Positions 12,729 through 42,984 of a DNA stretch of 64,000 bases are shown here, in pieces. The first letter of the stretch is position 1, and each line of letters begins with the position of its first letter. Both the position numbers and the translations under genes were made by a program. The notes beneath the pieces were generated by a model. The model saw only the letters and a program-made list of their open reading frames with translations, did no database searches and was not told the origin of the DNA. Location of the stretch: the NCBI RefSeq assembly GCF_988242995.1, contig NZ_OZ547043.1; one strand, 5' to 3'.

Positions 12729-12865
12729 TTTCCCGCCGTCTTTCATGCGGCAGATGCATTGGCTTCACCTGTTCACCCCGGTCACTTACTTATTTAAGCT
12801 CCCGGGGTTTACAGGTTTGCTGCCTTCCTGCAGCGTGAAATACTGAGGTAAAGGATTCGATGGCT

Positions 12866-12896
12866 GGACCGGGTAAGGCGCAGTCGCCTCCCGGCC
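12866..12896. repeat. REP-like palindromic element (diverged)
   Basis: GGACCGGGTAAGGCGCAGTCGCCTCCCGGCC resembles the REP consensus (GCCGGATAAGGCG...CGCC..TCCGGC) with several mismatches. Confidence 0.35.
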
Positions 12897-12907
12897 CCGG
12901 TAATGAT

Positions 12908-15283: not shown

Positions 15284-15285
15284 TC

Positions 15286-16593: not shown

Positions 16594-16881
16594 TCCACAG
16601 AATGGTATAGGGTTTGTGCGGCAACGTCAGAATGGAGTTGTCACACCACTTTTAACTTTTTGATAAATAAAGTCTTTATTGTTCGTTTTTCCATTATTTT
16701 TGTATGGAAGTTGTTCTACCAATTCACAGTAAGAGACCCTAAAAGCGAAAGAAAGCGGGTTTTGTGCACGTTTTTCCATGAGTGACTGATATACATTACT
16801 GAAATGGATTTAATGCCAGACAGAATGGGCTTTTTTGCTCATGAAAATTCTGTCATTTCCGAATTAGAGGCAGATCACAAA

Positions 16882-17985
16882 ATGGACAAGAAGCTGAAAA
16901 TCGCCGATATCGCCGCACGTACCGGGCTATCGCCGAGTACGGTTTCGCGGGTGCTGGCTGGCAAAGCGAATACCAGTGCACGCGCTCGCGAACAGGTGCT
17001 GGCCTGCGCGCGTGAGTTGGGCGTGATGGATGGCATGGCAGCAGGTCGTATGTTGCTGAACAACCTGATTATTTTCGCGCCGCAACGCGCTTTTGACCAA
17101 CGATCTGATATCTTTTATTACCGTGTGATCCAGAGCATCAGCAAAGCGTTATCGCCGCATGAAGTGCGGCTGCGTTACTGCGCGCTGGAGGAGTTTGACA
17201 GCGATCCCGCGCTATTTCTCTCGCGGATGAATGAAGCAGATACGCAGGCGGCGATCCTGCTGGGGATTGACGATCCGCACATCCATGATCTGGCCGCCGA
17301 TCTCGCTAAGCCTTGTGTGCTGATCAACTGCCGTGATGAACGAATGCGCCTCCCGGCGATTGCGCCGGACCATCGGTTAATTGGCGCGTTCGCCGCCCGC
17401 TATCTGTTTGAAATGGGTCACCGGGAGGTGATGAATGTGATGTGCCTGCGCCGCTACACTATGGAGCAGCGGTTTGCAGGGATTAAAGAATCATGGCGTC
17501 AGCATAATCTGGCCTTTCACCATGACCGTCATTTGCTGAATATCAGCAGTTTTAGCGCTAAAGAAGCGGAAGAAAAGGTCGGAGCGTGGCTGGATGCCGC
17601 CAATGGCAAGACGTTGCCGACGGCGTTTCTGGTCGGCGGGGATTTTATGGCGGCGGGAACGGTAAATGCGCTACATCGTCGTGGTCTGCGCGTACCACAG
17701 GATGTCTCGGTGATGAGTATCGACGGCTTTAACCTTGCGGCAATCGAGGATGTTCCCCTGACGGCTGTGCATGTGCCACGCGATGAGCTAGGCAATGAAG
17801 CGGTGCAAATGTTGCAACAGCGGCTGATTCGCCCGGATGCTCCGGTGGGCTCGCTGCTGCTGCACGGACGATTGGCGGTGCGGGAGTCAGTGCGGCGGGT
17901 TCGCCCAGGAAAAGGGAACACCGCCGTGGAACGGGAAGGGCTGTACGACACTCAGCTGTCGATTCCCAACGCTCGCTTACCGTGA
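16882..17985 (+). CDS. LacI-family transcriptional regulator, divergent from the MFS-GH31 operon
   Basis: N-terminal HTH KIADIAARTGLSPSTVSRVL followed by a periplasmic-binding-protein-like sugar-binding core. Start chosen at MDKKLKIADI; upstream in-frame ATGs exist, so the start is uncertain. Confidence 0.8.
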   Translation: MDKKLKIADIAARTGLSPSTVSRVLAGKANTSARAREQVLACARELGVMDGMAAGRMLLNNLIIFAPQRAFDQRSDIFYYRVIQSISKALSPHEVRLRYCALEEFDSDPALFLSRMNEADTQAAILLGIDDPHIHDLAADLAKPCVLINCRDERMRLPAIAPDHRLIGAFAARYLFEMGHREVMNVMCLRRYTMEQRFAGIKESWRQHNLAFHHDRHLLNISSFSAKEAEEKVGAWLDAANGKTLPTAFLVGGDFMAAGTVNALHRRGLRVPQDVSVMSIDGFNLAAIEDVPLTAVHVPRDELGNEAVQMLQQRLIRPDAPVGSLLLHGRLAVRESVRRVRPGKGNTAVEREGLYDTQLSIPNARLP

Positions 17986-19217
17986 ATGTTGAGGTCGGCA
18001 AGCGTAAAGCGTCCTTCCCAGTTTGTTTCATAGTCCTCGCGCGGGAAGTCGCCCGGCGATGCGCCTTTTTCCAGTGCGGCCTTCACCTTGTGCGCGTAGG
18101 CAAGATTTTTCTCGCACATCGGTGCCGCAGGAATGTACATCACGTTGCCCCAGCCCTGTTGATTTTCAACGGGGGCAACGGAATGGATGACGTCGCAGTG
18201 CCACCAGACGGAGTCTCCGGCTTCGAGTTTTGGAATGCTGGTTAACGCCTCAATCAACAGTGGATGCCATTGCTCTGATACCGGCAATACTCTTCCGGGC
18301 GCTACGCCGCACAGTTCATCCTCCGGCACATCATCAAGCAGCGGACGTAACAGTACGTACGCCATGGCTTCAGGAATGGGCACGACGTGCAGCAGCCCCT
18401 GACCAGGCAGCATATCAGAGAGCGCTGTCCAGCCCTGGAATGTCCGAAACACGGAACATTTGGTGGTGTTGTCCACCGTGTACTCTTCAACTTCCGTACG
18501 ATGTGCCGCATGCCAGGGATCATATTGCGCCAGATTGCCATTAAAGACGTTGGCGAAAACGCGCTGATACGCTGGAAGCAGCCAGCGTTCCAGTGCCCCG
18601 GAGTCGGTATGCGCTCCAAGACCTTTGGAGGTCGTTCCGGGCGGACGGCGGCGGATACGGTCAGGGTAGATGACGCTCACATCCGGGTTAAACCATTGCT
18701 TTCCATCACTTTCAAATGTCCACAGACGATTGAGAAACGACTGCGCATTCGCCATTTCTTCACTCTGGCGAGCCTGCATTTGCGCCTGCGACCAGTAGAT
18801 GGGGTAAATCTCGGGACGTGAAGCGCTGAGCGTCCCGAAGAAATTATCGCCGGGGCCTTTGTAGACCTCGTCAAAGCGGTTGCGGTCCAGATAGTCCAGC
18901 ATCGACTGATCCCAGCCTAGCGCTTGTTCGCGGGGGAAATGGCCTTTTATCACCGCACAACCGCGACGTTTAATCTGTTCGCGCTGCTCTGCAGTAACAT
19001 GACCTGCTTTGATATCGGCATAAGACAGCACCGGCCAGATGGCATCGCCCTGTGCTTTGAGTGCGTTGATTTCAGCCACTCGCGTAGCAATGTCATCGCT
19101 TAGCTGATTAAAGATCTGCTGGACGTCGCCAAGCTGTGCCCGCAGCGCGTGCTTCATCTGACGGATAGCTGCTTTGTGATCGGCAGGCAATGTGTCGCTG
19201 GTAAAAGTAGAAGCCAT
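17952..19217 (-). CDS. ybiU: DUF1479-family protein
   Basis: Start MASTFTSDTLPADHKAAIRQ... preceded by SD GAGGTGG; matches YbiU. Its 3' end overlaps the convergent LacI-family gene by 34 bp. Confidence 0.85.
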   Translation of the reverse strand: MASTFTSDTLPADHKAAIRQMKHALRAQLGDVQQIFNQLSDDIATRVAEINALKAQGDAIWPVLSYADIKAGHVTAEQREQIKRRGCAVIKGHFPREQALGWDQSMLDYLDRNRFDEVYKGPGDNFFGTLSASRPEIYPIYWSQAQMQARQSEEMANAQSFLNRLWTFESDGKQWFNPDVSVIYPDRIRRRPPGTTSKGLGAHTDSGALERWLLPAYQRVFANVFNGNLAQYDPWHAAHRTEVEEYTVDNTTKCSVFRTFQGWTALSDMLPGQGLLHVVPIPEAMAYVLLRPLLDDVPEDELCGVAPGRVLPVSEQWHPLLIEALTSIPKLEAGDSVWWHCDVIHSVAPVENQQGWGNVMYIPAAPMCEKNLAYAHKVKAALEKGASPGDFPREDYETNWEGRFTLADLNIHGKRALGIDS

Positions 19218-27689: not shown

Positions 27690-29547
27690 TGAACTTGATG
27701 CCGGTGATGTGCTGGCGGTTGAAAATCTGAATATTGCCTTTATGCAGGACCAGCAGAAAATAGCTGCGGTCCGCAATCTCTCTTTTAGCCTGCAACGCGG
27801 TGAGACGCTGGCAATTGTTGGCGAATCCGGCTCCGGTAAGTCAGTGACTGCGCTGGCATTGATGCGTCTGTTGGAACAGGCGGGCGGTTTAGTACAGTGC
27901 GATAAAATGCTGTTGCGGCGGCGCAGTCGCGAAGTGATTGAACTTATCGAGCAGAGCGCTGCACAAATGCGCCATGTGCGCGGTGCGGATATGGCGATGA
28001 TATTTCAGGAGCCGATGACATCGCTGAACCCGGTATTTACTGTGGGTGAACAGATTGCTGAATCTATTCGTCTGCATCAAAACGCCAGTCGTGAAGAAGC
28101 AATGGTCGAGGCGAAGCGGATGCTGGATCAGGTACGCATTCCGGAGGCACAAACCATTCTTTCACGTTATCCGCATCAACTCTCTGGCGGGATGCGCCAG
28201 CGAGTGATGATTGCGATGGCACTGTCATGCCGCCCGGCGGTGCTGATTGCCGATGAGCCAACCACCGCGCTGGATGTCACTATTCAGGCGCAGATCCTGC
28301 AATTAATCAAAGTATTGCAAAAAGAGATGTCGATGGGCGTTATCTTTATCACGCACGATATGGGCGTGGTGGCAGAGATTGCCGATCGGGTACTGGTGAT
28401 GTATCAGGGCGAGGCGGTGGAAACGGGTAGCGTCGAACAGATTTTCCATGCACCGCAACATCCTTACACCCGTGCGCTATTAGCTGCTGTTCCGCAACTT
28501 GGTGCGATGAAAGGGTTAGATTATCCCCGACGTTTCCCATTGATATCGCTTGAACATCCAGCCAAACAGGAACCACCCATCGAGCAGAAAACGGTGGTGG
28601 ATGGCGAACCTGTTTTACGGGTGCGTAATCTGGTCACCCGTTTCCCTTTGCGCAGCGGTTTGTTGAATCGCGTAACGCGGGAAGTGCATGCCGTTGAGAA
28701 AGTCAGTTTTGATCTCTGGCCTGGCGAAACGCTATCGCTGGTGGGCGAGTCTGGCAGCGGTAAATCCACTACCGGGCGGGCGTTGCTGCGCCTGGTCGAA
28801 TCGCAGGGCGGCGAAATTATCTTTAACGGTCAGCGAATCGATACCTTGTCATCCGGTAAACTTCAGGCATTGCGCCGGGATATTCAGTTTATTTTTCAGG
28901 ACCCTTACGCTTCGCTGGACCCACGTCAGACCATCGGTGATTCGATTATCGAACCGCTGCGCGTACACGGTTTATTGCCAGGTAAAGAAGCGGCTGCACG
29001 CGTTGCGTGGTTGCTGGAGCGCGTGGGCCTGTTACCTGAACATGCCTGGCGTTACCCGCATGAGTTTTCCGGCGGTCAGCGCCAGCGCATCTGCATTGCT
29101 CGCGCGTTGGCATTGAATCCAAAAGTGATCATTGCCGACGAAGCCGTCTCGGCGCTGGATGTTTCTATTCGCGGGCAGATTATCAACTTGTTGCTCGATC
29201 TCCAGCGTGATTTCGGCATTGCGTATCTGTTTATCTCCCACGATATGGCCGTGGTAGAGCGGATTAGTCATCGTGTGGCGGTGATGTATCTCGGACAAAT
29301 TGTTGAAATTGGTCCACGGCGCGCGGTCTTCGAAAACCCGCAGCATCCTTATACGCGTAAATTACTGGCGGCAGTTCCGGTCGCTGAACCGTCCCGACAA
29401 CGACCGCAGCGTGTACTGCTGTCGGACGATCTTCCCAGCAATATTCATCTGCGTGGCGAAGAGGTGGCAGCCGTCTCGTTGCAATGCGTCGGGCCGGGGC
29501 ATTACGTCGCACAACCACAATCAGAATACGCATTCATGCGTAGATAA
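27676..29547 (+). CDS. gsiA: Glutathione ABC importer ATP-binding protein (two fused ABC domains)
   Basis: Two Walker A motifs (GESGSGKS twice); start assigned to the TTG giving [10 protein letters not shown]... (623 aa), overlapping the iaaA stop. The start-codon choice is an inference. Confidence 0.85.
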
Positions 29548-29566
29548 CATTCAGGCGGAGAATAAA

Positions 29567-31105
29567 ATGGCAAGAGCTGTACACCGTAGTGGGTTAGTGG
29601 CGCTGGGCATTGCGACAGCGTTGATGGCATCTTGTGCATTCGCTGCCAAAGATGTGGTGGTGGCGGTAGGATCGAACTTCACCACGCTCGATCCGTATGA
29701 CGCAAATGACACGTTATCTCAGGCCGTAGCGAAATCGTTTTACCAGGGGCTGTTCGGTCTCGATAAAGAGATGAAACTGAAAAACGTACTGGCGGAGAGT
29801 TATACCGTTTCCGATGACGGCCTTACTTACACCGTGAAACTGCGGGAAGGAATTAAATTCCAGGATGGCACCGATTTCAACGCAGCGGCGGTAAAAGCGA
29901 ATCTGGACCGGGCCAGCGATCCGGCGAATCATCTTAAACGCTATAACCTGTATAAGAATATTGCCAAAACGGAAGCGATCGATCCGACAACGGTAAAGAT
30001 TACCCTCAAACAGCCGTTTTCAGCGTTTATTAATATTCTTGCCCATCCGGCGACCGCGATGATTTCGCCGGCAGCGCTGGAAAAATATGGCAAGGAGATT
30101 GGTTTTCATCCGGTGGGAACCGGGCCGTATGAACTGGATACCTGGAATCAGACCGATTTTGTGAAGGTGAAAAAATTCGCGGGTTACTGGCAGCCAGGAT
30201 TGCCCAAACTGGACAGCATAACCTGGCGTCCGGTGGCGGATAACAACACCCGCGCGGCAATGCTGCAAACCGGTGAAGCGCAGTTTGCTTTCCCCATTCC
30301 CTACGAGCAGGCCGCACTGCTGGAGAAAAACAAAAATATCGAGTTGATGGCCAGTCCGTCAATTATGCAGCGTTATATCAGTATGAACGTGACGCAAAAG
30401 CCGTTCGATAACCCGAAGGTCCGTGAGGCGCTGAATTACGCCATTAACCGCCCGGCGCTGGTGAAAGTGGCCTTCGCGGGCTATGCAACGCCAGCTACTG
30501 GTGTGGTACCGCCGAGTATCGCCTACGCGCAAAGTTATAAACCGTGGCCTTACGATCCAGTGAAAGCGCGCGAATTACTGAAAGAGGCGGGATATCCCAA
30601 CGGTTTCAATACCACGCTGTGGTCGTCACATAACCACAGCACCGCGCAGAAAGTGCTGCAATTTACCCAGCAGCAGTTAGCGCAGGTCGGGATTAAAGCC
30701 CAGGTGACTGCGATGGATGCCGGACAGCGGGCGGCAGAAGTCGAAGGTAAAGGGCAAAAAGAGAGCGGCGTGCGGATGTTCTACACTGGCTGGTCGGCTT
30801 CAACCGGCGAAGCTGACTGGGCACTATCGCCGCTGTTTGCCTCGCAAAACTGGCCACCGACGCTGTTTAATACCGCGTTTTACAGCAATAAACAGGTGGA
30901 TGACTTCCTGGCTCAGGCACTGAAAACTAATGATCCGGCGGAAAAGACCCGTTTATATAAGGCGGCGCAGGATATCATCTGGCAAGAGTCGCCGTGGATC
31001 CCGCTGGTGGTAGAAAAACTGGTGTCGGCACACAGTAAAAACCTGACCGGTTTTTGGATCATGCCAGACACCGGTTTCAGCTTTGAAGACGCGGATTTGC
31101 AATAA
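29567..31105 (+). CDS. gsiB: Glutathione-binding periplasmic protein
   Basis: [26 protein letters not shown] signal peptide; 512-aa substrate-binding protein (family 5). The track's upstream extension is rejected. Confidence 0.9.
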
Positions 31106-31122
31106 GCAACGCAGGGAGTGGA

Positions 31123-32043
31123 ATGCTTAATTACGTTATCAAACGCTTACTGGGGTTGATTCCAACGCTGTTTATCGTCTCGGTGCTGGTGTTTTTATTT
31201 GTGCATATGCTGCCCGGCGATCCGGCGCGATTGATTGCCGGGCCCGAAGCTGATGCGCAGGTTATAGAACTGGTGCGTCAGCAGCTGGGGTTGGATCAGC
31301 CGCTGTATCACCAGTTCTGGCACTATATCAGCAATGCTGTGCAGGGGGATTTTGGCCTGTCGATGGTGTCGCGTCGTCCGGTTGCCGATGAGATTGCCAG
31401 CCGCTTTATGCCAACGCTGTGGCTGACCATAACCAGTATGGTCTGGGCGGTGATATTTGGTATGGCGGCGGGAATTATCGCCGCCGTCTGGCGTAACCGT
31501 TGGCCGGATCGATTGAGTATGACCATTGCGGTGTCGGGGATCTCGTTTCCAGCATTTGCGCTGGGGATGCTTTTAATTCAGGTATTCTCCGTTGAACTTG
31601 GCTGGCTGCCTACCGTGGGAGCAGACAGTTGGCAGCACTACATTTTACCCTCCCTGACGCTCGGCGCGGCAGTGGCAGCCGTGATGGCGCGCTTTACCCG
31701 CGCGTCGTTTGTCGATGTTTTAAGCGAAGATTATATGCGTACCGCGAGGGCGAAAGGGGTGAGCGAAACCTGGGTTGTCCTCAAACACGGGCTACGCAAC
31801 GCGATGATCCCGGTAGTGACCATGATGGGCTTACAGTTTGGCTTTTTGCTCGGTGGTTCCATCGTGGTGGAGAAAGTTTTCAACTGGCCCGGACTTGGAC
31901 GCTTACTCGTTGACTCCGTAGAAATGCGCGATTACCCGGTGATTCAGGCGGAAATTCTGCTTTTCTCGCTGGAATTTATTCTTATCAACTTAGTGGTGGA
32001 TGTGCTTTACGCCGCCATTAACCCGGCTATCAGGTACAAGTAA
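31123..32043 (+). CDS. gsiC: Glutathione ABC transporter permease
   Basis: 306-aa permease; matches GsiC. Confidence 0.9.
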
Positions 32044-32045
32044 GG

Positions 32046-32957
32046 ATGCGACTATTTAACTGGCGACGTCAGGCGGCGTTAAACGCCATGCCACTGGTCA
32101 AACCTGACCAGGTACGTACACCGTGGCATGAATTCTGGCGACGATTTCGCCGTCAGCATATGGCGATGACCGCCGCATTATTCGTTATTTTATTGATTGT
32201 AGTGGCCATTTTTGCACGCTGGATCGCTCCCTATGACGCCGAAAATTATTTCGATTATGACAATCTGAATAACGGACCTTCTTTGCAGCACTGGTTTGGC
32301 GTTGATTCACTGGGGCGTGACATTTTCAGCCGTGTCCTGGTTGGTGCACAAATCTCGCTGGCGGCGGGCGTGTTTGCCGTGTTTATCGGTGCGGCGATCG
32401 GGACGTTGCTGGGCTTGCTGGCTGGATATTATGAAGGCTGGTGGGATCGGCTGATCATGCGCATTTGCGATGTGCTGTTTGCCTTCCCGGGTATTTTACT
32501 GGCGATCGCTGTTGTTGCGGTGTTGGGAAGCGGCATTGCTAACGTGATTATTGCAGTCGCCATTTTTTCCATCCCCGCGTTTGCCCGACTGGTGCGCGGC
32601 AACACGCTGGTGTTGAAACAGCAAACCTTTATTGAGTCAGCACGCAGTATTGGTGCCAGCGATATGACCATTTTATTGCGTCATATCTTGCCCGGGACCG
32701 TCTCGTCTATCGTGGTGTTTTTCACCATGCGCATCGGTACCTCGATTATCTCTGCCGCCAGCCTGTCATTTCTCGGCCTCGGTGCGCAGCCGCCGACACC
32801 AGAGTGGGGAGCAATGCTCAATGAGGCACGAGCGGATATGGTTATCGCGCCGCATGTCGCTATTTTTCCGGCCCTGGCTATTTTTCTGACTGTACTGGCG
32901 TTCAATTTGTTGGGTGATGGTTTACGCGATGCGCTGGATCCGAAAATTAAAGGATAG
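32046..32957 (+). CDS. gsiD: Glutathione ABC transporter permease
   Basis: 303-aa permease; matches GsiD. Confidence 0.9.
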
Positions 32958-33134
32958 TTACGTTTGAATATTGCTTGAAAGGGTAATCACCTCACAGGAA
33001 ATTATTGCCCTAAGCAAGTGTTGTAACTTTCTGCTGATTTTGTAGAATCGGGTAATTTGGTTAAAAAGCCGCAGCAAGGGACTGTTTTTGCAGCGGCACA
33101 GCGTTCAGACAGTTATTTTGTTAAATGTATTAAC

Positions 33135-35483
33135 ATGCTGAGTTTATACGAAAAGATAAAGATAAGGCTGATAATTTTATTTTTATTGGCAGCACTGTCA
33201 TTTATTGGCCTTTTTTTCATCATTAACTATCAACTGGTATCGGAACGCGCGGTAAAACGTGCCGATAGCCGCTTTGAACTTATTCAGAAAAACGTTGGCT
33301 ATTTCTTTAAAGATATTGAACGTTCGGCCCTGACATTAAAGGACTCACTGTATTTATTAAAAAATACAGAGGAGATTCAACGCGCTGTGATCCTTAAAAT
33401 GGAAATGATGCCATTTTTAGACTCGGTGGGACTGGTACTTGATGATAATAAATATTATCTCTTTTCGCGGAGGGCGAATGATAAAATCGTTGTTTATCAT
33501 CAGGAAGAAGTAAATGGACCGCTTGTCGACGAGTCAGGGCGGGTTATTTTTGCCGATTTTAATCCATCGAAACGACCATGGTCGGTGGCTTCAGATGACT
33601 CTAACAACAGCTGGAATCCGGCCTACAATTGCTTTGATCGTCCGGGTAAAAAATGTATCTCTTTTACGCTACGCATCAACGGCAAAGATCACGATTTGTT
33701 AGCGGTGGATAAAATACATGTCGATTTAAACTGGCGATATCTGAACGAGTATCTTGATCAAATCAGCGCTAATGATGAAGTTCTATTTTTGAAACAAGGC
33801 CATGAGATCATTGCCAAGAATCAACTCGCGCGTGAAAAACTGATTATTTATAATAGCGAAGGTAATTATAATATTATTGATTCTGTCGATACTGAATATA
33901 TTGAAAAAACATCAGCGGTGCCAAACAACGCATTATTCGAAATCTATTTTTATTATCCTGGCGGTAATTTATTGAACGCATCAGATAAACTTTTTTATCT
34001 GCCGTTTGCTTTCATTATTATCGTATTGCTGGTGGTTTATTTAATGACCACTCGTGTGTTCCGTCGGCAATTTTCTGAAATGACCGAGCTGGTTAATACG
34101 CTGGCGTTTTTGCCCGACTCAACGGATCAGATCGAGGCTCTGAAAATTCGCGAAGGCGATGCGAAAGAGATTATCAGCATCAAAAATTCGATCGCGGAAA
34201 TGAAAGATGCTGAAATTGAACGGGCAAATAAATTGCTCTCGCTGATCTCTTACGATCAGGAAAGCGGTTTTATTAAAAATATGGCGATTATTGAGTCCAA
34301 CAATAATCAGTATCTGGCTGTGGGGATCATCAAACTGTGTGGTCTGGAAGCTGTGGAAGCGGTGTTTGGTGTTGATGAACGCAATAAAATCGTCAGGAAA
34401 TTGTGTCAGCGAATTGCCGAGAAATATGCGCAATGCTGCGATATCGTGACATTTAATGCCGATCTCTATTTACTCCTGTGCCGGGAAAATGTACAGACGT
34501 TTACCCGTAAGATAGCGACGGTAAACGATTTTGACAGCAGTTTTGGCTACCGCAATCTGCGCATCCATAAGTCTGCTATTTGTGAACCTTTGCAGGGGGA
34601 AAACGCCTGGAGTTACGCAGAAAAGCTGAAACTGGCGATTTCCAGTATCCGCAACCATATGTTCTCAGAGTTTATTTTCTGTGATGACGCGAAACTCAAC
34701 GAAATAGAAGAGAATATCTGGATTGCGCGTAATATTCGCCATGCAATGGAAATTGGCGAACTATTCCTCGTCTATCAACCGATCGTTGATATTAACACCC
34801 GCGCCATTCTGGGCGCGGAGGCGTTGTGCCGTTGGGTGTCTGCGGAGCGGGGGATCATTTCACCGCTAAAGTTCATTACCATTGCTGAAGATATCGGGTT
34901 TATCAATGAGCTGGGTTATCAGATTATTAAAACGGCAATGGGTGAATTCAGACATTTTAGTCAGCGTGCGTCGCTGAAGGATGATTTCTTACTGCATATT
35001 AATGTTTCGCCCTGGCAGTTAAACGAACCACACTTTCATGAGCGTTTTACCACCATCATGGAAGAAAATGGCCTGAAGGCGAACAGCCTCTGTGTTGAGA
35101 TCACTGAAACCGTGATCGAGCGAATTAATGAACATTTTTATCTCAATATTGAACAACTGCGTAAACAAGGAGTACGGATATCGATTGATGACTTTGGCAC
35201 CGGTTTGTCAAACCTGAAACGTTTTTATGAAATTAATCCAGATAGCATAAAGGTGGACTCACAATTTACCGGCGATATTTTCGGTACTGCGGGAAAAATT
35301 GTGCGCATTATTTTCGATCTGGCACGCTATAACCGGATCCCGGTGATTGCGGAAGGCGTAGAGAGCGAAGACGTTGCGCGCGAATTAATCAAATTAGGAT
35401 GTGTTCAGGCTCAGGGGTATCTGTACCAGAAACCCATGCCGTTCTCCGCCTGGGATAAAAGTGGAAAATTAGTAAAAGAGTAG
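33135..35483 (+). CDS. pdeI: c-di-GMP phosphodiesterase (periplasmic sensor domain, degenerate GGDEF, EAL)
   Basis: Start [15 protein letters not shown]...; EAL-domain motifs near the C-terminus (ELF, DDFGTG); matches YliE/PdeI (782 aa). The track ORF extends 26 codons upstream. Confidence 0.85.
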
Positions 35484-35490
35484 TTTACGT

Positions 35491-36819
35491 ATGTCCAGAA
35501 TCAATAAGTTCGTACTTACAGTCAGTCTGCTGATTTTTATCATGATTTCAGCAGTTGCCTGCGGGATCTACACTCAAATGGTAAAGGAACGGGTGTATGG
35601 CCTGAAACAGTCCGTTATTGATACTGCTTTTGCGGTGGCAAATATTGCTGAATATCGGCGTAGCGTGGCAATTGATCTCATCAACACGCTAAACCCCACG
35701 GAGGAACAGCTGTTGGTTGGTTTGCGCACAGCTTACGCCGACTCGGTTTCACCCTCTTATTTGTACGATGTCGGTCCTTATCTGATTTCCAGTGACGAAT
35801 GTATTCAGGTAAAGGAGTTCGAGAAAAATTATTGTGCAGATATTATGCAGATTGTGAAGTATCGACATGTCAAAAATACAGGGTTTATCTCTTTTGACGG
35901 TAAAACCTTCGTCTATTACCTCTATCCGGTAACTCATAATCGTAGTCTGATATTTTTGCTTGGTCTGGAGCGTTTTTCTTTACTGTCAAAATCGCTGGCG
36001 ATGGATAGCGAGAACCTGATGTTCTCTCTGTTTAAGAACGGTAAACCGGTGACCGGTGATGAATATAATGCTAAAAACGCCATCTTCACCGTTTCGGAAG
36101 CGATGGAGCACTTCGCCTATTTGCCGACCGGATTGTACGTATTTGCGTATAAAAAAGATGTTTATTTGCGGGTCTGTACATTGATTATTTTCTTTGCCGC
36201 ATTGGTGGCAGTGATATCGGGTGTCAGTTGCCTCTATCTGGTACGCAGAGTGATTAATCGTGGTATTGTGGAGAAAGAAGCCATCATTAATAACCATTTT
36301 GAACGCGTACTGGATGGCGGGCTTTTCTTTTCAGCTGCCGATGTCAAAAAACTCTACAGTTTGTATAACTCGGCGTTCCTGGATGACCTGACCAAAGCAA
36401 TGGGCAGAAAATCCTTTGACGAAGATTTAAAAGCGCTGCCGGAAAAAGGCGGTTATTTGTGCCTGTTTGACGTCGATAAATTCAAAAACATCAACGACAC
36501 CTTCGGTCATTTGCTGGGCGATGAAGTGTTGATGAAAGTGGTGAAAATCCTTAAATCACAGATCCCCGTAGATAAAGGTAAAGTCTACCGCTTCGGCGGT
36601 GACGAATTTGCGGTGATTTATACGGGTGGAACGCTGGAAGAGTTGCTATCGATTCTAAAAGAAATTGTTCATTTCCAGGTGGGAAGCATTAATTTAAGCA
36701 CCAGTATCGGTGTAGCGCATTCAAATGAATGTACTACCGTTGAACGCTTGAAAATGCTGGCGGATGAGCGGCTGTATAAGAGTAAGAAAAACGGCAGGGC
36801 GCAGATTAGCTGGCAGTAG
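35491..36819 (+). CDS. dgcI: Diguanylate cyclase (GGDEF domain)
   Basis: 442-aa ORF with the active-site motif RFGGDEF; matches YliF/DgcI. Confidence 0.9.
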
Positions 36820-36833
36820 AATTAGAATAGTGT

Positions 36834-36859
36834 TAGTACCCCTTAATCAAGGGGTACTA
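36834..36859. other. Perfect 9-bp-stem inverted repeat (TAGTACCCC-ttaatcaa-GGGGTACTA) at the dgcI / TA-module junction
   Basis: Read directly from the sequence; no flanking U-run on either strand, so the terminator role is uncertain. Confidence 0.4.
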
Positions 36860-36888
36860 ATGAATGTGGTAAATCATTTGCAAACATT

Positions 36889-37218
36889 TTACTTTGCAAA
36901 AACTTCCGGCCCTTTTATTGCCAATGTATTCAAAATACGTAATGCCGGGCCGCTCGGTTTTATTTCATTACGTTCCCATTTCGAGACACTTTCTTTTGAC
37001 ATTCCCATTGTATGTGCCAGCACGGATTGTGACATGCCGTATCGGGTGCGGATGGCTTTGATCTCTTCACCCGTCATTGATTTGACTTTGGCTATACGGG
37101 CGCTGACTTCACGAGCTTTGACCATGACGGCAATGGCATCAACTTCACTATCAGACATCAGGCCCAGTGCATTCAGTTCCTTTGCATCTTCCAGCATCAT
37201 TTGTAATTTATCGCTCAT
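36889..37218 (-). CDS. Type II antitoxin, HTH-XRE family (C-terminal helix-turn-helix)
   Basis: 109-aa ORF; the C-terminal segment ...IKAIRTRYGMSQSVLAHTMGMSKESVSKWERNEIKPSGPALRILNTLAIKGPEV fits an XRE/Cro-type HTH. It overlaps the upstream toxin ORF by 11 nt. Confidence 0.7.
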   Translation of the reverse strand: MSDKLQMMLEDAKELNALGLMSDSEVDAIAVMVKAREVSARIAKVKSMTGEEIKAIRTRYGMSQSVLAHTMGMSKESVSKWERNEIKPSGPALRILNTLAIKGPEVFAK

Positions 37219-37594
37219 TTTTCACCTCAATCAAAAAGCCAGTTTCGATCAAATCCTCTATTTGCTTATTGCTAAAGGCCAGAAATGCATTTGCCATTTT
37301 TTTGTAGGCCGCCAGTTCATCATCTTCGATTTCTTTGGTTCCTTTACTGCTTAGACCACTCTTGGACCAACCATCATAAAAAAACACATGATTTGCTGAT
37401 TTAAAAAAGATAATTGTTCTGGCTCCACCACTCTTTCCTTGTTGGAGGGGTAAACGTTTTTTGATGACACCGCTACCTAAATCAGCCTCCCATATGCCCT
37501 GCATCACTTCTTCAGCGGCAGCCATGAGAACTTTATCGTGAATACCAAGTTTTTTCGTGCTTTGGCTGAATCGTCTTGCCTTATACACACCCAT
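37208..37594 (-). CDS. Type II toxin, RelE/ParE superfamily (HigB-2/Gp49-like)
   Basis: 128-aa ORF preceded by SD AGGATGG; toxin-first gene order with an HTH antitoxin downstream, as in HigBA-type modules. The family call rests on pattern resemblance (GGARTIIFF...GWSKS...KEIEDDEL), not on an alignment. Confidence 0.65.
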   Translation of the reverse strand: MGVYKARRFSQSTKKLGIHDKVLMAAAEEVMQGIWEADLGSGVIKKRLPLQQGKSGGARTIIFFKSANHVFFYDGWSKSGLSSKGTKEIEDDELAAYKKMANAFLAFSNKQIEDLIETGFLIEVKNER

Positions 37595-37609
37595 ACATCC
37601 ATCCTTGTG

Positions 37610-37635
37610 GTAATGTTTACTATAGTAACCATTAC
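37610..37635. promoter_or_regulatory. 26-bp near-perfect palindrome (GTAATG-tt-TACTATAGTA-ac-CATTAC), candidate autoregulatory operator of the TA operon
   Basis: Starts 16 bp upstream of the toxin ATG; the central TACTATAGTA is perfectly palindromic. Confidence 0.5.
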
Positions 37636-37819
37636 GCTTATTTCAAGTAATTGCGATCAAAACTTTAATTTGGTGTGAAAAAGTGAGAGTTGCCTCGAGT
37701 ACGATTCATTTTTCTCGATTTATGCGTCAGGGGATTTTGTGCGTAAGGGTAGGACATCGGGAAGGGCAGCAGAGGCAGATCGAAGAACAATATCCTTGTT
37801 AGATCTGCCTTAAGATTAA

Positions 37820-39145
37820 TTAAACCCGGCTACCCCACAAATCGTACTCATCGGCGTGCTCGACTTTCACACGCAGGATATCACCCGGCTTAACGTTGGT
37901 TTCACCATTGAGATAAACCGCGCCGTCGATTTCCGGTGCATCTGCCATGCTGCGACCAATCGCGCCTTCTTCGTCCACTTCGTCGATAATCACCAGAATT
38001 TCACGGCCCACTTTCTCTTGCAGGCGCTCGGCGGAAATCTGCTGCTGCAGCTGCATGAAACGGTTCCAGCGTTCTTCTTTCACTTCTTCCGGAACCTGGT
38101 CAGGCAGGGCATTGGCGTCTGCACCTTCAACCGGGCTGTATTTAAAGCAGCCAACGCGATCCAGACGCGCTTCTTTCAGGAAGTCGAGTAGCATCTGGAA
38201 ATCTTCTTCCGTCTCGCCAGGGAAGCCGACAATAAAGGTTGAGCGTAGGGTCAGTTCCGGGCAGATTTCGCGCCACTGTTTGATGCGCGCCAGTTGGCGA
38301 TCTACAGAACCCGGACGCTTCATCAGTTTGAGAATGCGCGGGCTGGCGTGCTGCAACGGAATGTCCAGATACGGCAGGATTTTGCCTTCTGCCATCAGTG
38401 GGATGACGTCGTCCACATGCGGATAAGGGTAAACGTAGTGCAGACGTGTCCAGATCCCCAGTTTCGATAACTGTTCGCACAGGCTGACCATGCTGGTTTT
38501 TACCGGCTCGCCGTTGTGGAAGCCAGTACGATGTTTAACATCAACGCCATAGGCGGAAGTATCCTGCGAGATCACCAGAATCTCTTTAACGCCAGCATCT
38601 ACCAGACGTTTCGCTTCACTTAACACTTCGCCAATCGGACGGCTCACCAGGTCGCCGCGCATAGACGGAATAATGCAGAAGGTGCAGCGGTGATTACAGC
38701 CTTCAGAAATTTTCAGATAGGCATAATGACGCGGCGTCAGTTTCACGCCTTGTTCTGGCACCAGGCTCAGGAATGGGTTGTGTTTCGGTTTTGGCACGTA
38801 GTGATGAACGTGCTCCAGAACCTGCTCATAGCTATGAGGCCCGGTGATTTCCAGCACTTTCGGGTGGACTTCGCGGATCTGATCTTCTTTTGCCCCCAGA
38901 CAACCGGTCACAATTACCTTGCCGTTTTCATTCAACGCTTCACCAATGGCTTCCAGTGATTCTTGTACCGCGCTGTCAATAAAGCCGCAGGTGTTGACGA
39001 TCACCATGTCCGCATCGTCATAGCTCGGTACCACGTCATAACCTTCAGTGCGTAGTTCGGTGAGAATACGCTCTGAATCAACAAGGTTTTTCGGACAGCC
39101 AAGGGAAACAAAGCCGATTTTCGGCTGGGGAGTTACTTTGCTCAT
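37820..39145 (-). CDS. rimO: Ribosomal protein S12 methylthiotransferase (radical SAM MTTase)
   Basis: 441-aa ORF with N-terminal MTTase Cys residues and the radical-SAM motif CNHRCTFC; matches RimO. Confidence 0.95.
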
Positions 39146-39357
39146 AGCTTAAAAAATATTCAGTTACAGGAAAGGTCAGGGCAGGGATTCTACAGAGTTC
39201 TGGATAAAATTTGTATCGCAATCTCATTCGCTGGCGGAGGCGAAGGAAATGTAAATTTTGTTAATTCGGCGTGAAGAATTGATCCTGGACAGCATTTTGC
39301 TCAAAAAATAGCCATACTATTTAATTGCAACAAGGCTGGAAAGAGGAGGATCGAAGT

Positions 39358-39741
39358 ATGTTCGTTGACAGACAGCGAATCGATCTGCTGAACCGGTTGA
39401 TCGACGCACGCGTTGACCTCGCCGCATACGTGCAACTGAGGAAGGCAAAAGGATACATGTCCGTCAGCGAAAGCAATCATCTACGAGATAACTTTTTTAA
39501 ACTGAATCGCGAACTGCACGATAAATCGCTGCGGTTGAATCTTCATCTGGATCAGGAAGAGTGGAGTGCTCTTCATCATGCTGAAGAAGCATTAGCGACA
39601 GCCGCAGTATGTTTGATGAGTGGGCACCATGATTGCCCGACTGTTATTACCGTCAACGCCGATAAGCTTGAAAATTGTCTGATGAGCTTAACGCTGAGTA
39701 TCCAGAGCCTGCAGAAGCACGCCATGCTTGAGAAGGCCTGA
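39358..39741 (+). CDS. bssR: Biofilm regulator BssR
   Basis: Start MFVDRQRIDLLNRLIDARVDLAAYVQ... with SD AGGAGGA; 127 aa. The track's upstream extension is rejected. Confidence 0.9.
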   Translation: MFVDRQRIDLLNRLIDARVDLAAYVQLRKAKGYMSVSESNHLRDNFFKLNRELHDKSLRLNLHLDQEEWSALHHAEEALATAAVCLMSGHHDCPTVITVNADKLENCLMSLTLSIQSLQKHAMLEKA

Positions 39742-39851
39742 AAACTAAGGGGGAGAAAGCGTCTCCCCCTTCATGTTTAAGTTTTTGTAAAAATGAATTT
39801 GTTATCTCCTCCACTGACTACGCTTTAAGCCAGAGTCAATCCGGAGGCGTT

Positions 39852-40912
39852 ATGCATCGACAATCCTTTTTCCTTGTGCCCCTTATTTGTCTTTCTTCCG
39901 CTCTCTGGGCGGCTCCTGCAACGGTAAATGTCGAAGTACTGCAGGACAAACTCGACCATCCCTGGGCGCTGGCCTTTTTACCCGACAATCACGGTATGTT
40001 AATCACTCTGCGCGGCGGCGAGTTGCGTCACTGGCAAGCAGGAAAAGGATTATCTGCGCCGCTTTCCGGAGTGCCGGAAGTTTGGGCGCACGGGCAGGGT
40101 GGCCTGCTGGATGTGGTTTTAGCGCCTGATTTTGCTCAGTCTCGCCGCATCTGGTTAAGTTATTCCGAAGTTGGCGATGATGGCAAAGCCGGAACTGCTG
40201 TGGGTTATGGCCGCTTAAGTGATGATCTCTCAAAGGTGACCGACTTCCGCACCGTCTTTCGCCAGATGCCAAAACTGTCTACCGGCAACCATTTTGGCGG
40301 GCGGCTGGTATTCGACGGTAAAGGTTATCTTTTTATTGCTCTGGGCGAAAACAATCAGCGCCCGACGGCGCAGGATCTGAATAAATTACAGGGCAAACTG
40401 GTGCGTCTGACCGACCAGGGCGAAATCCCGGATGATAATCCTTTTATAAAGGAATCCGGTGCGCGCGCCGAGATCTGGTCTTATGGCATTCGTAATCCGC
40501 AAGGAATGGCGATGAAATTAATATCCCGCAAAAAGGCAAAAACTACGGCTGGCCGCTGGCAACCTGGGGAATCAACTATTCAGGCTTTAAGATACCGGAA
40601 GCGAAAGGGGAGATCGTCGCCGGGACCGAGCAACCTGTTTTTTACTGGAAAGATTCGCCCGCCGTGAGCGGCATGGCCTTCTATAACAGCGATAAATTCC
40701 CCCAGTGGCAGCAAAAATTATTTATTGGCGCGCTGAAAGATAAAGATGTCATTGTGATGAGCGTCAACGGCGACAAAGTGACAGAAGATGGCCGTATTTT
40801 AACGGACAGAGGGCAGCGAATTCGTGATGTTCGCACTGGACCCGACGGTTATTTATACGTTCTCACCGACGAGTCCAGTGGGGAATTACTTAAAGTTAGC
40901 CCACGCAATTAG
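39852..40912 (+). pseudogene. yliI: Soluble aldose sugar dehydrogenase (PQQ-dependent beta-propeller), disrupted by a frameshift
   Basis: N-terminal 218 aa (signal peptide ... NPQGMAM) are in one frame (ORF 39852..40667), and the C-terminal portion (GDEINIPQKGKNYGWPLATWGINYSGF...KVSPRN) continues in another frame (to 40912). The first frame degenerates into low-complexity sequence after position 40514. Confidence 0.75.
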
Positions 40913-41535
40913 CTAACGGGAATCATCACCACTTTGCGCACTGCTGGGCGTTCAGTGAGTTGCTGATACCAGCGTTGCAGATTTGGACGCGGTGTCCAGG
41001 TCAGGCCAACGTTAAACAAATTGTAGATGAACGGAGCGATAGCGATATCGCCCACACCAAACTCGTCGCCAGAGAACCATTTTACTTTTGCCAGTTCCGC
41101 ATCGAGCAGGGCAAACAGGGCGTCGCACTCTTTACAACTGGCATCAATGGCGGCCTGATCGCGCTCTTCCGGTGGTGTTCTGACTAATCCCATCAGGATC
41201 CCGCGATGAGCATTACTGAGCGTCTGGTTTGCCCAGTCCATCCATTTTTCTGCTTCCGCACGACGTGCCGGTGAGTCGATCCACAGGCGTTTTTGCCCGT
41301 ACTGTGCCGCCAGATAGCGGACAATGGCGTTTGATTCCCAAAGAATGAGATCACTTTCGTCGTCACGCAACAACGGCACCAGCCCGTTAGGGTTCATCGC
41401 CAGAAAATCAGCATCGTGATTTATCCCAAACTCACGGCCCGCGAGAATTTGCTCATAAGGTAGTTCCAGTTCTTCGAGCGTCAGCAATACTTTTTTTACG
41501 TTGGTTGAATTATTCCGACCCCACAGCGTAATCAT
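40909..41535 (-). CDS. gstB: Glutathione S-transferase
   Basis: Start [28 protein letters not shown]...; 208 aa; matches GstB/YliJ. Confidence 0.9.
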
Positions 41536-41781
41536 ACTCACCCCTTTTCCGACAGGCAGCCACAGGCTGAACAGGACTCCGATGGTGAAGTAAAGTTAAC
41601 TTTTAAGCAACAGCTGGCAAAAAAATGACACCAGAAGCAGCGAAGCGGCAGGATATTGCATAAACTTTAAAAACTTTACCAACTTACGGTTTCTTTAAGT
41701 TTGTGTGTGCGTTATTAATCACCGAACTTATCATACGGCGATATAACGTATTTTTTTTGAATGGATACTCGGGTGGCATTT

Positions 41782-42984
41782 ATGACGCAATACTCCTCTC
41801 TCCTTCGTGGTCTTGCAGCGGGTTCTGCATTTTTATTCCTTTTTGCCCCAACGGCATTCGCGGCGGAACAAACCGTTGAAGCGCCGAGCGTGGATGCGCG
41901 TGCATGGATTTTAATGGATTACGCCAGCGGTAAAGTGCTGGCAGAAGGCAATGCGGATGAAAAACTGGACCCCGCGAGCCTGACTAAAATCATGACCAGC
42001 TATGTGGTTGGGCAGGCGCTTAAGGCCGATAAGATTAAACTCACCGATATGGTGACGGTCGGTAAAGATGCCTGGGCGACGGGAAATCCGGCACTGCGTG
42101 GTTCATCGGTAATGTTCCTTAAACCGGGCGATCAGGTTTCAGTGGCAGACCTGAACAAAGGTGTGATTATCCAGTCCGGTAATGACGCCTGTATTGCGCT
42201 GGCCGATTACGTTGCCGGGAGCCAGGAGTCATTTATTGATCTGATGAATGGTTATGCCAAAAAACTGGGTCTGACCAACACTACCTTCCAGACGGTGCAC
42301 GGTCTGGATGCGCCGGGGCAGTTCAGTACCGCGCGCGATATGGCATTGCTGGGTAAAGCATTAATCCACGATGTGCCGGAAGAGTACGCCATTCATAAAG
42401 AGAAAGAGTTCACCTTCAACAAAATTCGACAGCCTAACCGTAACCGTCTGCTATGGAGCAGCAATCTGAATGTTGATGGCATGAAGACAGGAACCACGGC
42501 AGGCGCGGGATATAATCTGGTTGCTTCGGCTACCCAGGGCGATATGCGTTTGATCTCCGTAGTACTGGGTGCGAAAACTGACCGTATCCGTTTTAATGAG
42601 TCTGAGAAATTATTGACCTGGGGTTTCCGCTTCTTTGAAACCGTGACGCCAATTAAACCTGATGCCACCTTTGTGACTCAGCGCGTCTGGTTTGGTGATA
42701 AGAGCGAAGTGAATCTCGGGGCAGGTGAAGCGGGCTCAGTGACCATACCGCGTGGGCAGCTGAAAAACCTGAAAGCGAGCTACACGTTAACGGAACCGCA
42801 GCTTACCGCACCGCTGAAAAAAGGTCAGGTTGTCGGGACCATTGATTTCCAGCTTAACGGTAAATCCATTGAGCAGCGTCCGCTGATCGTGATGGAAAAT
42901 GTGGAAGAGGGCGGATTCTTTGGGCGGATGTGGGATTTCGTTATGATGAAATTCCATCAGTGGTTCGGCAGCTGGTTCTCTTAA
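41782..42984 (+). CDS. dacC: D-alanyl-D-alanine carboxypeptidase (PBP6)
   Basis: Start [27 protein letters not shown]; active-site motifs SLTK, SGN and KTG are present; 400 aa. Confidence 0.9.

Follow-up and report, generated by a model that had tools for sequence, protein, structure and literature searches.

The pdeI-dgcI pair, which lies between gsiD and rimO in the 64-kb window (the whole stretch of DNA that we analysed), is in our judgement very likely to be an ancient, horizontally acquired two-gene cassette that was gained on the Escherichia stem, has been partly ameliorated and is bound by H-NS. Old horizontal acquisition had been suggested in a preliminary description of this DNA, and the suggestion is supported by the empty sites of related genera, the core status of the pair in E. 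coli, the existence of mobile paralogs with a GC content of 32–35%, a shift toward host composition that is graded by codon position (GC3 > GC1 > GC2) and H-NS binding. That the pair is AT-rich, horizontally acquired and H-NS-bound is already in the literature, and this status is both real and ordinary. As an old acquisition that H-NS coats, that is only partly ameliorated and that has become core, the locus would be a clean example fit for a textbook, and its significance beyond good annotation is small.

Features of the locus and its composition

The names pdeI and dgcI, as given in the preliminary description, agree with the RefSeq annotation of a 100%-identical strain and with Pfam. The start it gave for pdeI needs correcting: 33057 marks only where the open frame has its first TTG, and in the annotation pdeI begins at an ATG (33135) and encodes a protein of 782 aa. 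Gene positions were mapped onto the window by BLAST, since strain NY1601 does not match it throughout. The features of the locus are as follows.

32046..32957, + strand: gsiD, which closes the glutathione ABC transporter operon; it flanks the insertion on the left and has a host-like GC content of 0.525
32958..33134, + strand: gsiD-pdeI intergenic region, AT-rich; left edge of the low-GC block
33021-33048: promoter-like site in the gsiD-pdeI intergenic region, TTGTAA-16-TAGAAT (promoter scan)
33135..35483, + strand: pdeI (yliE), 782 aa; membrane sensor, GC 0.418
35491..36819, + strand: dgcI (yliF), 442 aa; membrane sensor, GC 0.436
36820..37815, no strand: TA segment, 996 bp; TA module with flanking hairpins
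36833..36860, no strand: hairpin, a perfect 12-bp inverted repeat (TTAGTACCCCTT/AAGGGGTACTAA), probably a terminator; it closely follows the dgcI stop and lies in the left end of the TA segment
36889..37218, − strand: HTH (Xre/HigA-like) antitoxin gene, 109 aa (Pfam HTH_3, 1.9e-9); second gene of the TA module, with an 11-nt overlap with the toxin gene
37208..37594, − strand: RelE/ParE-superfamily toxin gene, 128 aa (PF06296, 6.9e-33); first gene of the TA module
37610..37635, no strand: 26-bp palindrome, GTAATGTTTACTATAGTAACCATTAC, probably the TA operator; it overlaps a promoter-like site (37646->37619) that precedes the toxin gene
37820..39145, − strand: rimO, convergent with gsi, pdeI and dgcI; right flank, with a host-like GC content of 0.527

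PdeI comprises a periplasmic CHASE9 domain (Pfam, 1.3e-62), a degenerate middle region and an EAL domain (1.6e-69 over the full profile), together with TM-like segments. It contains EALCR at residue 562 and DDFGTG at residue 685, and with this domain and these catalytic motifs (EXLXR, DDFGTG) it is predicted to be an EAL-domain c-di-GMP phosphodiesterase; one paper argues that PdeI raises c-di-GMP (PMC11651652). DgcI pairs a periplasmic GAPES2 domain (Pfam, 1.3e-142) with a GGDEF domain (2.9e-25) whose GGDEF motif is intact at residue 369, conforming to GG(D/E)EF, and is predicted to be a GGDEF-domain diguanylate cyclase. A motif scan found no RxxD I-site immediately upstream of the GGDEF motif.

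The preliminary description had judged by eye that the pair is more AT-rich than its neighbours, and measurement bears this out: the region from 33057 to 36819 is 42.4% GC (0.424), compared with 0.510 for the whole window, 0.524 for the sequence preceding it, 0.508 for the sequence following it and 52.5–54.0% for gsiA-D and rimO (0.525–0.540 and 0.527, respectively). Both of the AT-rich strings cited as examples exist, aaagataaagataagg at 33152 and ttttatttttatt at 33175, each within the first 60 nt of pdeI. When segments of 3763 bp were taken in 50-bp steps across the 64 kb, only 0.7% were as low in GC, and the minimum (0.420) fell in the segment starting at 32951, making pdeI-dgcI the lowest-GC 3.8-kb block in the window. 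Relative to the 56 other genes of the window, pdeI has a GC content of 0.418 (z = -3.15) and dgcI one of 0.436 (z = -2.6). The low-GC block is bounded by the stop codons of gsiD and rimO (32958-37819) and thus takes in the TA module; the gsiD-pdeI intergenic sequence (32958-33056) has a GC content of 0.364, the TA segment (36820-37819) 0.414 and the toxin gene 0.408, with a GC3 of 0.378. The AT-richness of pdeI-dgcI is therefore well above that of the host, as is characteristic of xenogeneic DNA.

The excess of AT in both genes is present at all three codon positions. Compared with the means of the other window genes, GC1 is 0.49 against 0.59, GC2 is 0.31–0.32 against 0.40, and GC3 is 0.451 in pdeI and 0.501 in dgcI against 0.579; the dgcI value lies inside the range of native window genes such as artJ (0.483) and ybjI (0.496). 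About two thirds of the GC deficit resides at positions 1 and 2, that is in amino-acid composition and not in codon choice. The fraction of amino acids with AT-rich codons (FYMINK) is 0.33–0.35 in PdeI and DgcI versus 0.247, the fraction with GC-rich codons (GARP) is 0.19 versus 0.267, and the GC content predicted by amino-acid composition alone is 0.455–0.461 versus 0.527 for other genes. This part of the deficit could reflect protein-specific composition. The GC3 expected from amino-acid composition is 0.546 for pdeI and 0.554 for dgcI, in both cases above what is observed. The check on codon usage proposed in the preliminary description thus gave a mixed result: GC3 is low, whereas the CAI, calculated with Sharp and Li weights, is 0.272 for pdeI and 0.290 for dgcI, within the gsiA-D range of 0.244–0.341, and the likelihood of the synonymous codons, judged by the codon usage of the window itself, is average for both genes (z = -0.06 and -0.49, respectively), as for the flanking genes. 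GC and CAI can accordingly disagree: GC flags the pair and CAI does not.

Distribution of the pair and its mobile relatives

The pair is core in E. coli, being present in 5425 of 5426 complete genomes, and the gain would therefore be old, on the Escherichia stem. Other species were surveyed through GsiD, using the 80 best of its loci out of at least 586; these come from 80 Enterobacterales species, among which E. coli itself, E. marmotae, E. ruysiae and Citrobacter koseri and its relatives do not figure. Among these 80 loci the pair occurs in E. albertii only (88% identity for PdeI and 93% for DgcI), and gsiD and rimO stand tail to tail with a gap of 37–130 bp in ~35 species of ~20 Enterobacteriaceae genera, including Salmonella, Citrobacter, Enterobacter, Klebsiella, Kluyvera and Buttiauxella. 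An E. fergusonii-type locus carries an ortholog pair at the same gsiD/rimO junction, with identities of 69% (PdeI) and 78% (DgcI). Among the loci surveyed, then, the pair is found between gsiD and rimO in Escherichia only (E. coli, E. albertii and E. fergusonii-type), and its restricted distribution is accompanied by an intact empty site in relatives, again as in xenogeneic DNA.

Cassettes of the same design occur on mobile DNA. A CHASE9-EAL gene followed by a GAPES2-GGDEF gene, in the same order and with the same abutment, lies on an IncF/IncHI plasmid between IS26 and IS1, beside bcsAB; similar cassettes are found on plasmid contigs with ccdAB and KfrA, and one adjoins bcsABC on an E. ruysiae contig. 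The occurrence of YliE/YliF homolog cassettes on plasmids or near bcs has been independently reported (bioRxiv 10.1101/2025.05.09.653004). These cassettes share domain architectures, gene order and abutting genes with pdeI-dgcI, and differ from it in their GC content of 32–35% and in being flanked by IS elements or plasmid maintenance genes; they adjoin cellulose synthase or sugar-utilisation genes, whereas pdeI-dgcI sits between gsiD and rimO. Since the plasmid- and bcs-linked cassettes (33–35% GC, GC3 0.28–0.31) are only 33–43% identical to PdeI and DgcI at the protein level, they are paralogs and not donors. Two additional members of the family have a GC content of 32%. The whole family is very small: when the GAPES2 sensor region was searched exhaustively with HMMER against 1.84 billion representatives, there were 36 matches, comprising only Escherichia orthologs, a few lineages of plasmid- or bcs-linked paralogs and fragments, with no donor lineage among them. 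Nor did a search for homologues of the DgcI protein reveal a donor lineage, all matches outside the cassette family being to the GGDEF domain.

With the mobile copies as the starting point, pdeI-dgcI lies 0.57–0.73 of the distance toward the host in GC3, 0.38–0.41 in GC1 and about 0 in GC2. A shift of this order, together with a normal CAI, is what partial amelioration, the drift of foreign DNA to host composition, would be expected to look like. We propose that a cassette encoding a CHASE9-EAL phosphodiesterase and a GAPES2-GGDEF cyclase landed between gsiD and rimO, whose 3' ends face each other across a short spacer, that this insertion took place on the stem of the genus Escherichia and later became core in E. 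coli, and that its source was an AT-rich, plasmid-associated gene pool of ~32–35% GC. Third codon positions would since have covered some 50–75% of the distance to E. coli composition and first positions ~40%, with second positions, and with them amino-acid composition, unmoved. Such uneven amelioration would explain why the pair still stands out at 42–44% GC despite its native-looking CAI.

The gsiD-rimO junction and the TA module

In an alignment to L002, the 996-bp TA segment stands where K-12-like strains have a 42-bp hairpin spacer between dgcI and rimO, and its breakpoints fall exactly at the dgcI and rimO stop codons. Of the 5426 complete E. coli genomes, 1138 (21%) carry the module, at one chromosomal site only. 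Its two adjacent small genes, with PF06296 and HTH_3 domains and the toxin gene first, are those of a type II TA system; as judged from the DNA itself, it appears to resemble higBA-type systems in having the RelE/ParE-superfamily toxin gene upstream, an HTH antitoxin gene second, an 11-nt overlap and a palindrome over the promoter-like site. Unlike its nearest relatives outside E. coli, which have only ~70% DNA identity and lie on Morganellaceae plasmids, the module here is chromosomal. The RelE/HTH module would have taken the place of the dgcI-rimO spacer at a later date and is still polymorphic; strains probably exchange it through homologous recombination within the conserved genes on either side.

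The proximity of the TA insertion had led to the remark in the preliminary description that this may be a recombination-prone spot, and here the comparison agrees. At least three fillings of the dgcI-rimO spacer exist: the 42-bp hairpin, the TA module and, in E. albertii, a HEAT-repeat gene. We considered whether the E. albertii spacer might be a decayed TA module and rejected this, as it contains an unrelated HEAT-repeat ORF, which was found in no E. coli genome. Moreover, among the 80 GsiD loci surveyed, unrelated cargo lies between gsiD and rimO in at least nine other species, the cargo in other lineages including TA modules (a zeta toxin among them), RHS/RCC1-repeat proteins and sugar-utilisation operons.

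We found no tRNA gene between 25000 and 45000, no integrase, transposase or mobility gene between gsiD and rimO, and only short chance matches among direct or inverted repeats, terminal ones included, bounding the pdeI-dgcI block or the TA segment; the mechanism of insertion is therefore invisible. The block accordingly has none of the marks of a classical genomic island or integrative element (integrase, tRNA/att site, direct repeats). It shares with tRNA-linked islands a deviant GC content, a restricted distribution and an intact empty site in relatives, and differs from them in lacking a tRNA gene, integrase, direct repeats and mobility genes, in being ~4 kb and fixed in the species, and in its landing site, the terminator spacer of two convergent genes. 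It is possible, though on balance we doubt it, that the gsiD-rimO terminator spacer is an Enterobacteriaceae-wide integration hot spot that works without a recognisable integrase, att site or repeat and holds unrelated cargo in different lineages, and that the CHASE9-EAL/GAPES2-GGDEF cassette itself belongs to a very small family of ~32–35% GC confined to enterobacterial plasmids and accessory bcs clusters. The comparison of the junction could serve as one data point for integration hot spots at convergent gene ends.

H-NS binding and competing histories

Binding of H-NS, for which the preliminary description had proposed ChIP data as a check, is already published for this locus, from ChAP-seq of K-12, SE11 and SE15 and not of the strain of this window (Higashi et al. 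2016, PLoS Genet, PMC4720273). In S2 Table, yliF, in transcription unit yliEF, is marked TRUE for H-NS binding and TRUE under the strict criterion, with an HTG entry of 'L/N'; yliD is bound, and yliG (rimO) is bound at its 3' end only. In S3 Table the spacer between yliD and yliE is entered as bound, with a known promoter. Binding at the locus extends over the 3' ends of both yliD and yliG, and the bound region matches the low-GC block (32958-37819); yliEF is itself one of the H-NS-bound, horizontally transferred core genes listed there. The HTG flags there are compositional HGT predictions after Lawrence and Ochman (1998) and Nakamura et al. (2004), and we infer from counts of 381 HGT genes among 2702 orthologs that upper case in that column stands for 'predicted'. 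To this published picture the present analysis adds the comparison of empty sites across genera, the breakdown by codon position and the comparison with mobile paralogs, and the strain of this window also has the TA module in the same AT-rich block. H-NS would coat pdeI-dgcI because the pair is AT-rich, and this coating probably keeps it silent at low temperature; in CFT073, both pdeI and dgcI are expressed more strongly at 37 °C than at 23 °C (PMC12890032).

AT-richness might instead be a trait of the protein class, weakly expressed membrane sensors rich in Ile, Asn, Lys, Phe and Tyr, in which case the contrast with gsi and rimO would say nothing of history. This would account for the two thirds of the GC deficit found at codon positions 1 and 2 (amino-acid-expected GC 0.455–0.461 versus 0.527), for the high FYMINK and low GARP fractions and for the normal CAI and synonymous-codon likelihood. 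H-NS binding or an HTG flag is likewise seen in further c-di-GMP genes of E. coli: of the 29 E. coli GGDEF/EAL genes, seven were compared by their H-NS and HTG flags in the published table, and among these yeaI, yeaP and yfiN are bound as well as yliF, making four of the seven (PMC4720273). We nevertheless regard this explanation as extremely unlikely. GC3 falls 5–10 points under the amino-acid prediction (0.451 vs 0.546; 0.501 vs 0.554), the non-coding upstream spacer is still more AT-rich (0.364), the FYMINK shift is itself typical of genes from AT-rich genomes, and the phyletic pattern and mobile paralogs point to a foreign origin independently of composition.

Two other histories bear on the timing and direction of transfer. 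Were the pair ancestral to the Enterobacteriaceae, or to the Escherichia-Salmonella-Citrobacter clade, and repeatedly lost, its AT-richness would have been kept locally, for example because H-NS binding and thermoregulation were selected for, or because selection is relaxed on genes of weak expression. The native-like CAI is compatible with such a history, as is the ~2-3 fold scaling of pair divergence with flank divergence in E. albertii and E. fergusonii, which vertical descent predicts; in addition, the gsi genes of the E. fergusonii-type locus are as far from those of E. coli (79% nt; 90% aa for GsiB-C-D) as the Salmonella and Citrobacter ones, so that the pair could be older than is apparent. 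We hold an ancestral pair to be very improbable, however, as it needs many independent clean deletions, each leaving a hairpin spacer of 37–130 bp, in ~35 species of ~20 genera, outgroups included, among the 80 GsiD loci surveyed out of at least 586, and a single gain is far more parsimonious; all relatives of the cassette off the Escherichia chromosome are, moreover, plasmid-borne, IS-flanked or linked to accessory bcs clusters, at 32–35% GC. A cassette that spread more recently among Escherichia species, possibly with its flanks, by homologous recombination in gsiD/rimO, and with no single ancient gain, is about equally improbable to us. The junction does exchange content, as seen from the TA module in 21% of E. 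coli, its breakpoints at the dgcI and rimO stop codons and the different filling of the spacer in E. albertii, and at the E. fergusonii-type locus the flanking gsi genes have diverged to an unusual degree. Yet the ortholog identities (88% and 69% for PdeI, 93% and 78% for DgcI) are below those of the flanking genes, not above them, which argues against recent interspecies exchange, and a single old event agrees with the presence of the pair in nearly all E. coli and with its composition, which is consistently intermediate in the three species.

With a single old gain as the preferred reading, the pair would represent an Escherichia-specific addition to the c-di-GMP signalling network whose cousins are plasmid-borne and linked to cellulose synthesis, and these cellulose-linked cousins may guide guesses as to what pdeI-dgcI regulates. 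A further observation concerns promoter-like sites between 28000 and 42000: their total is not above the shuffled expectation (15 vs 18.6 ± 4.1), and only their clustering is notable, with 11 of the 15 inside the low-GC block, which makes up 35% of that sequence (binomial P = 0.003).

Composition and codon usage of the pdeI-dgcI block

The window spans glnQ to artI of the E. coli chromosome. Of 5426 complete E. coli genomes, 5425 matched a 7-kb query taken around pdeI-dgcI, and strain NY1601 matched it with 100% identity. Because NY1601 and the window differ somewhere in the 64 kb, we transferred the RefSeq annotation of NY1601 to the window by BLAST, which gave the following gene order:

upstream of pdeI, + strand: gsiA-B-C-D
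33135-35483, + strand: pdeI
35491-36819, + strand: dgcI
36889-37218, - strand: HTH antitoxin
37208-37594, - strand: RelE/ParE-family toxin
37820-39145, - strand: rimO, then bssR

The start at 33057 in the preliminary description only marks where the open frame has its first TTG; the annotated pdeI start is the ATG at 33135. PdeI pairs a periplasmic CHASE9 domain with an EAL domain (EALCR and DDFGTG motifs intact) and DgcI a periplasmic GAPES2 domain with a GGDEF domain (GGDEF motif intact). Both are predicted c-di-GMP enzymes; one paper argues that PdeI raises, rather than lowers, c-di-GMP (PMC11651652).

The AT-richness of these genes relative to gsi and rimO, previously judged by eye, was borne out by measurement, and the two AT-rich strings quoted in its support were found at 33152 and 33175. 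GC content is 42.4% across 33057-36819, compared with 51.0% for the window, 52.4% before the block, 50.8% after it, 52.5-54.0% in gsiA-D and 52.7% in rimO. Only 0.7% of all 3763-bp windows in the 64 kb are equally low and the minimum begins at 32951, making the pdeI-dgcI block the most AT-rich of the window. Against 56 other genes, pdeI (41.8% GC) has a z-score of -3.15 and dgcI (43.6%) one of -2.6. The low-GC block exceeds the two genes, running from the gsiD stop to the rimO stop and including the gsiD-pdeI spacer (36.4%) and the toxin-antitoxin (TA) segment (41.4%).

Relative to other window genes, GC is low at all three codon positions of pdeI and dgcI: 0.49 versus 0.59 at GC1, 0.31-0.32 versus 0.40 at GC2 and 0.45-0.50 versus 0.58 at GC3. 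As all three are lowered, amino-acid composition accounts for about two thirds of the deficit; FYMINK residues (AT-rich codons) make up 0.33-0.35 of PdeI and DgcI versus 0.247, and GARP residues (GC-rich codons) 0.19 versus 0.267. GC3 also lies 5-10 points under the value predicted from amino-acid composition. Codon adaptation looks native, with CAI (Sharp and Li weights) of 0.27 for pdeI and 0.29 for dgcI versus 0.24-0.34 in gsiA-D, and average synonymous-choice likelihood when scored on the window's own codon usage. GC and codon usage within the range of the flanks had been proposed as grounds for rejecting this finding; this test splits, since GC falls far outside that range and CAI inside it.

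H-NS binding and expression

The AT-rich block is real and already documented: predictions of horizontal transfer for the locus date from 1998 and 2004, and the map of H-NS binding from 2016 (Higashi et al. 2016, PMC4720273; strains K-12, SE11 and SE15). To this we add a cross-genus survey of empty sites, a breakdown of GC by codon position, a comparison with the AT-rich mobile paralogs and a list of the other cargo seen at the junction. In S2 Table yliF (dgcI) carries the horizontal-transfer flag 'L/N', read here as a prediction, the methods cited being Lawrence & Ochman 1998, Nakamura 2004 and HGT-DB, and is H-NS-bound by both criteria, within transcription unit yliEF; yliD (gsiD) is bound, and yliG (rimO) at its 3' end only. 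The yliD-yliE spacer is H-NS-bound according to S3 Table, which also gives it a known promoter. The H-NS check suggested earlier is thus answered by published tables, whose footprint matches the low-GC block measured here. In CFT073, pdeI and dgcI are expressed more highly at 37 C than at 23 C (PMC12890032), and the block, at 35% of the length of 28000-42000, contains 11 of the 15 promoter-like sites of that stretch (P = 0.003); both fit H-NS binding. The same S2 Table lists the c-di-GMP genes yeaI, yeaP and yfiN as bound too (PMC4720273), so pdeI-dgcI is not unusual in this respect.

Phyletic distribution and mobile relatives

We examined the best 80 of at least 586 GsiD loci (one genome per species, all Enterobacterales, 10-kb flanks, E. 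coli absent). Among these 80, pdeI-dgcI follows gsiD only in E. albertii, where PdeI and DgcI are 88% and 93% identical to the E. coli proteins and the pair lies in a 4.6-kb interval with 41.7% GC. In about 35 species of the same set, gsiD and rimO stand tail to tail, 37-130 bp apart, with a GC-rich hairpin or REP-like sequence as spacer; this empty junction occurs in, among others, Salmonella, Citrobacter, Enterobacter, Klebsiella, Raoultella, Kluyvera, Lelliottia, Buttiauxella, Kosakonia, Yokenella, Cedecea, Atlantibacter and Trabulsiella. A third ortholog pair at the junction (PdeI 69%, DgcI 78% identity) lies on a contig whose DgcI groups with E. fergusonii proteins. On this distribution a single gain on the Escherichia stem is much more parsimonious than many clean losses; because the pair is fixed in E. 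coli, that gain is old. The proposal of old horizontal acquisition is essentially right.

Two observations concern these genomes themselves. The E. fergusonii-type gsiB-C-D (L086 1-2596) has 79% nucleotide identity to E. coli, a distance like that of Salmonella or Citrobacter and more than expected within the genus. Either recombination in the past or a wrong lineage assignment may explain this. In the E. albertii type-strain draft, pdeI is frameshifted at a poly-T run near codons 27-29 (L005 ~9200-9220), either a pseudogene or a sequencing error.

Full-length relatives of the cassette (33-43% identity, order and abutment unchanged) occur in three other settings: between IS26 and IS1 and adjoining bcsAB on an IncF/IncHI plasmid, adjoining sugar-utilisation genes on ccdAB/KfrA plasmid contigs, and on a contig of E. 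ruysiae, where the cassette lies upstream of bcsABC. Mobile YliE/YliF-type cassettes also appear in a 2025 preprint (bioRxiv 10.1101/2025.05.09.653004). The mobile copies have 33-35% GC and GC3 of 0.28-0.31, and two further family members 32% GC. The GAPES2-GGDEF family is very small: when the GAPES2 sensor region was searched exhaustively with HMMER against 1.84 billion representatives, just 36 hits emerged, and fragmentary Escherichia orthologs made up the majority. Members outside the Escherichia chromosome (loci L091, L092, L085, L087 and L090) all have 32-35% GC.

At GC3, E. coli pdeI and dgcI have covered 57-73% of the distance from the mobile copies to host composition; the figure is about 40% for GC1 and 0% for GC2, the order that amelioration predicts. 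The E. fergusonii-type genes have covered less of it at GC3 (27-39%). Because the mobile copies are paralogs, not donors, amelioration is a reading that we infer from these comparisons.

Variable content at the gsiD/rimO junction

As the preliminary description noted, a TA insertion adjoins pdeI-dgcI: where K-12-like strains have a 42-bp hairpin spacer, a 996-bp segment with the TA module fits exactly between the stop codons of dgcI and rimO. Of 5426 E. coli genomes, 1138 carry this segment, and its nearest relatives outside E. coli (~70% DNA identity) are on Morganellaceae plasmids. A 26-bp palindrome, GTAATGTTTACTATAGTAACCATTAC (37610-37635), just upstream of the toxin gene, overlaps the region's best promoter-like site (37646->37619, TTGAAA-16-TATAGT) and is probably the TA operator. 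The dgcI-rimO spacer of E. albertii NBRC 107761 (L005 12816-13572) instead holds an unrelated HEAT-repeat ORF of 233 aa, encoded on the minus strand (GC 0.50); none of the 5426 E. coli genomes has a match to it.

Elsewhere, in Citrobacter, Pseudescherichia-like, Phytobacter, Superficieibacter and Pseudocitrobacter genomes (loci L007, L012, L015, L020, L027, L030, L035, L046 and L047), gsiD and rimO are separated by 3-8 kb of unrelated cargo. Examples of this cargo are a zeta toxin, RHS- and RCC1-repeat proteins, a GH31/LacI/transporter set, a LysR/MFS pair and a LevR-like sigma-54/PRD regulator with PTS genes, much of it lower in GC than its flanks. These alternative fillings and cargoes uphold the suggestion of a recombination-prone spot. 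No integrase, tRNA gene or bounding repeats were found at the locus, and allelic replacement via the conserved flanking genes would be the likely route of exchange.

Variation elsewhere in the window includes an accessory block at 12800-17990, between ybiT and ybiU, which encodes a LacI-family regulator, an MFS transporter and a GH31 glycosidase and is found in just 577 of the 5426 complete E. coli genomes; with its GC of 0.54-0.565, this variable insertion would be missed by base composition alone. The gene yliI (aldose sugar dehydrogenase, 39852-40912) has lost 55 bp between two copies of TGGCGATGAA (junction ~40507-40516), and the resulting frameshift leaves two ORFs, 39852-40667 and 40664-40912; yliI is intact (1116 bp) in NY1601 and a K-12-like strain.
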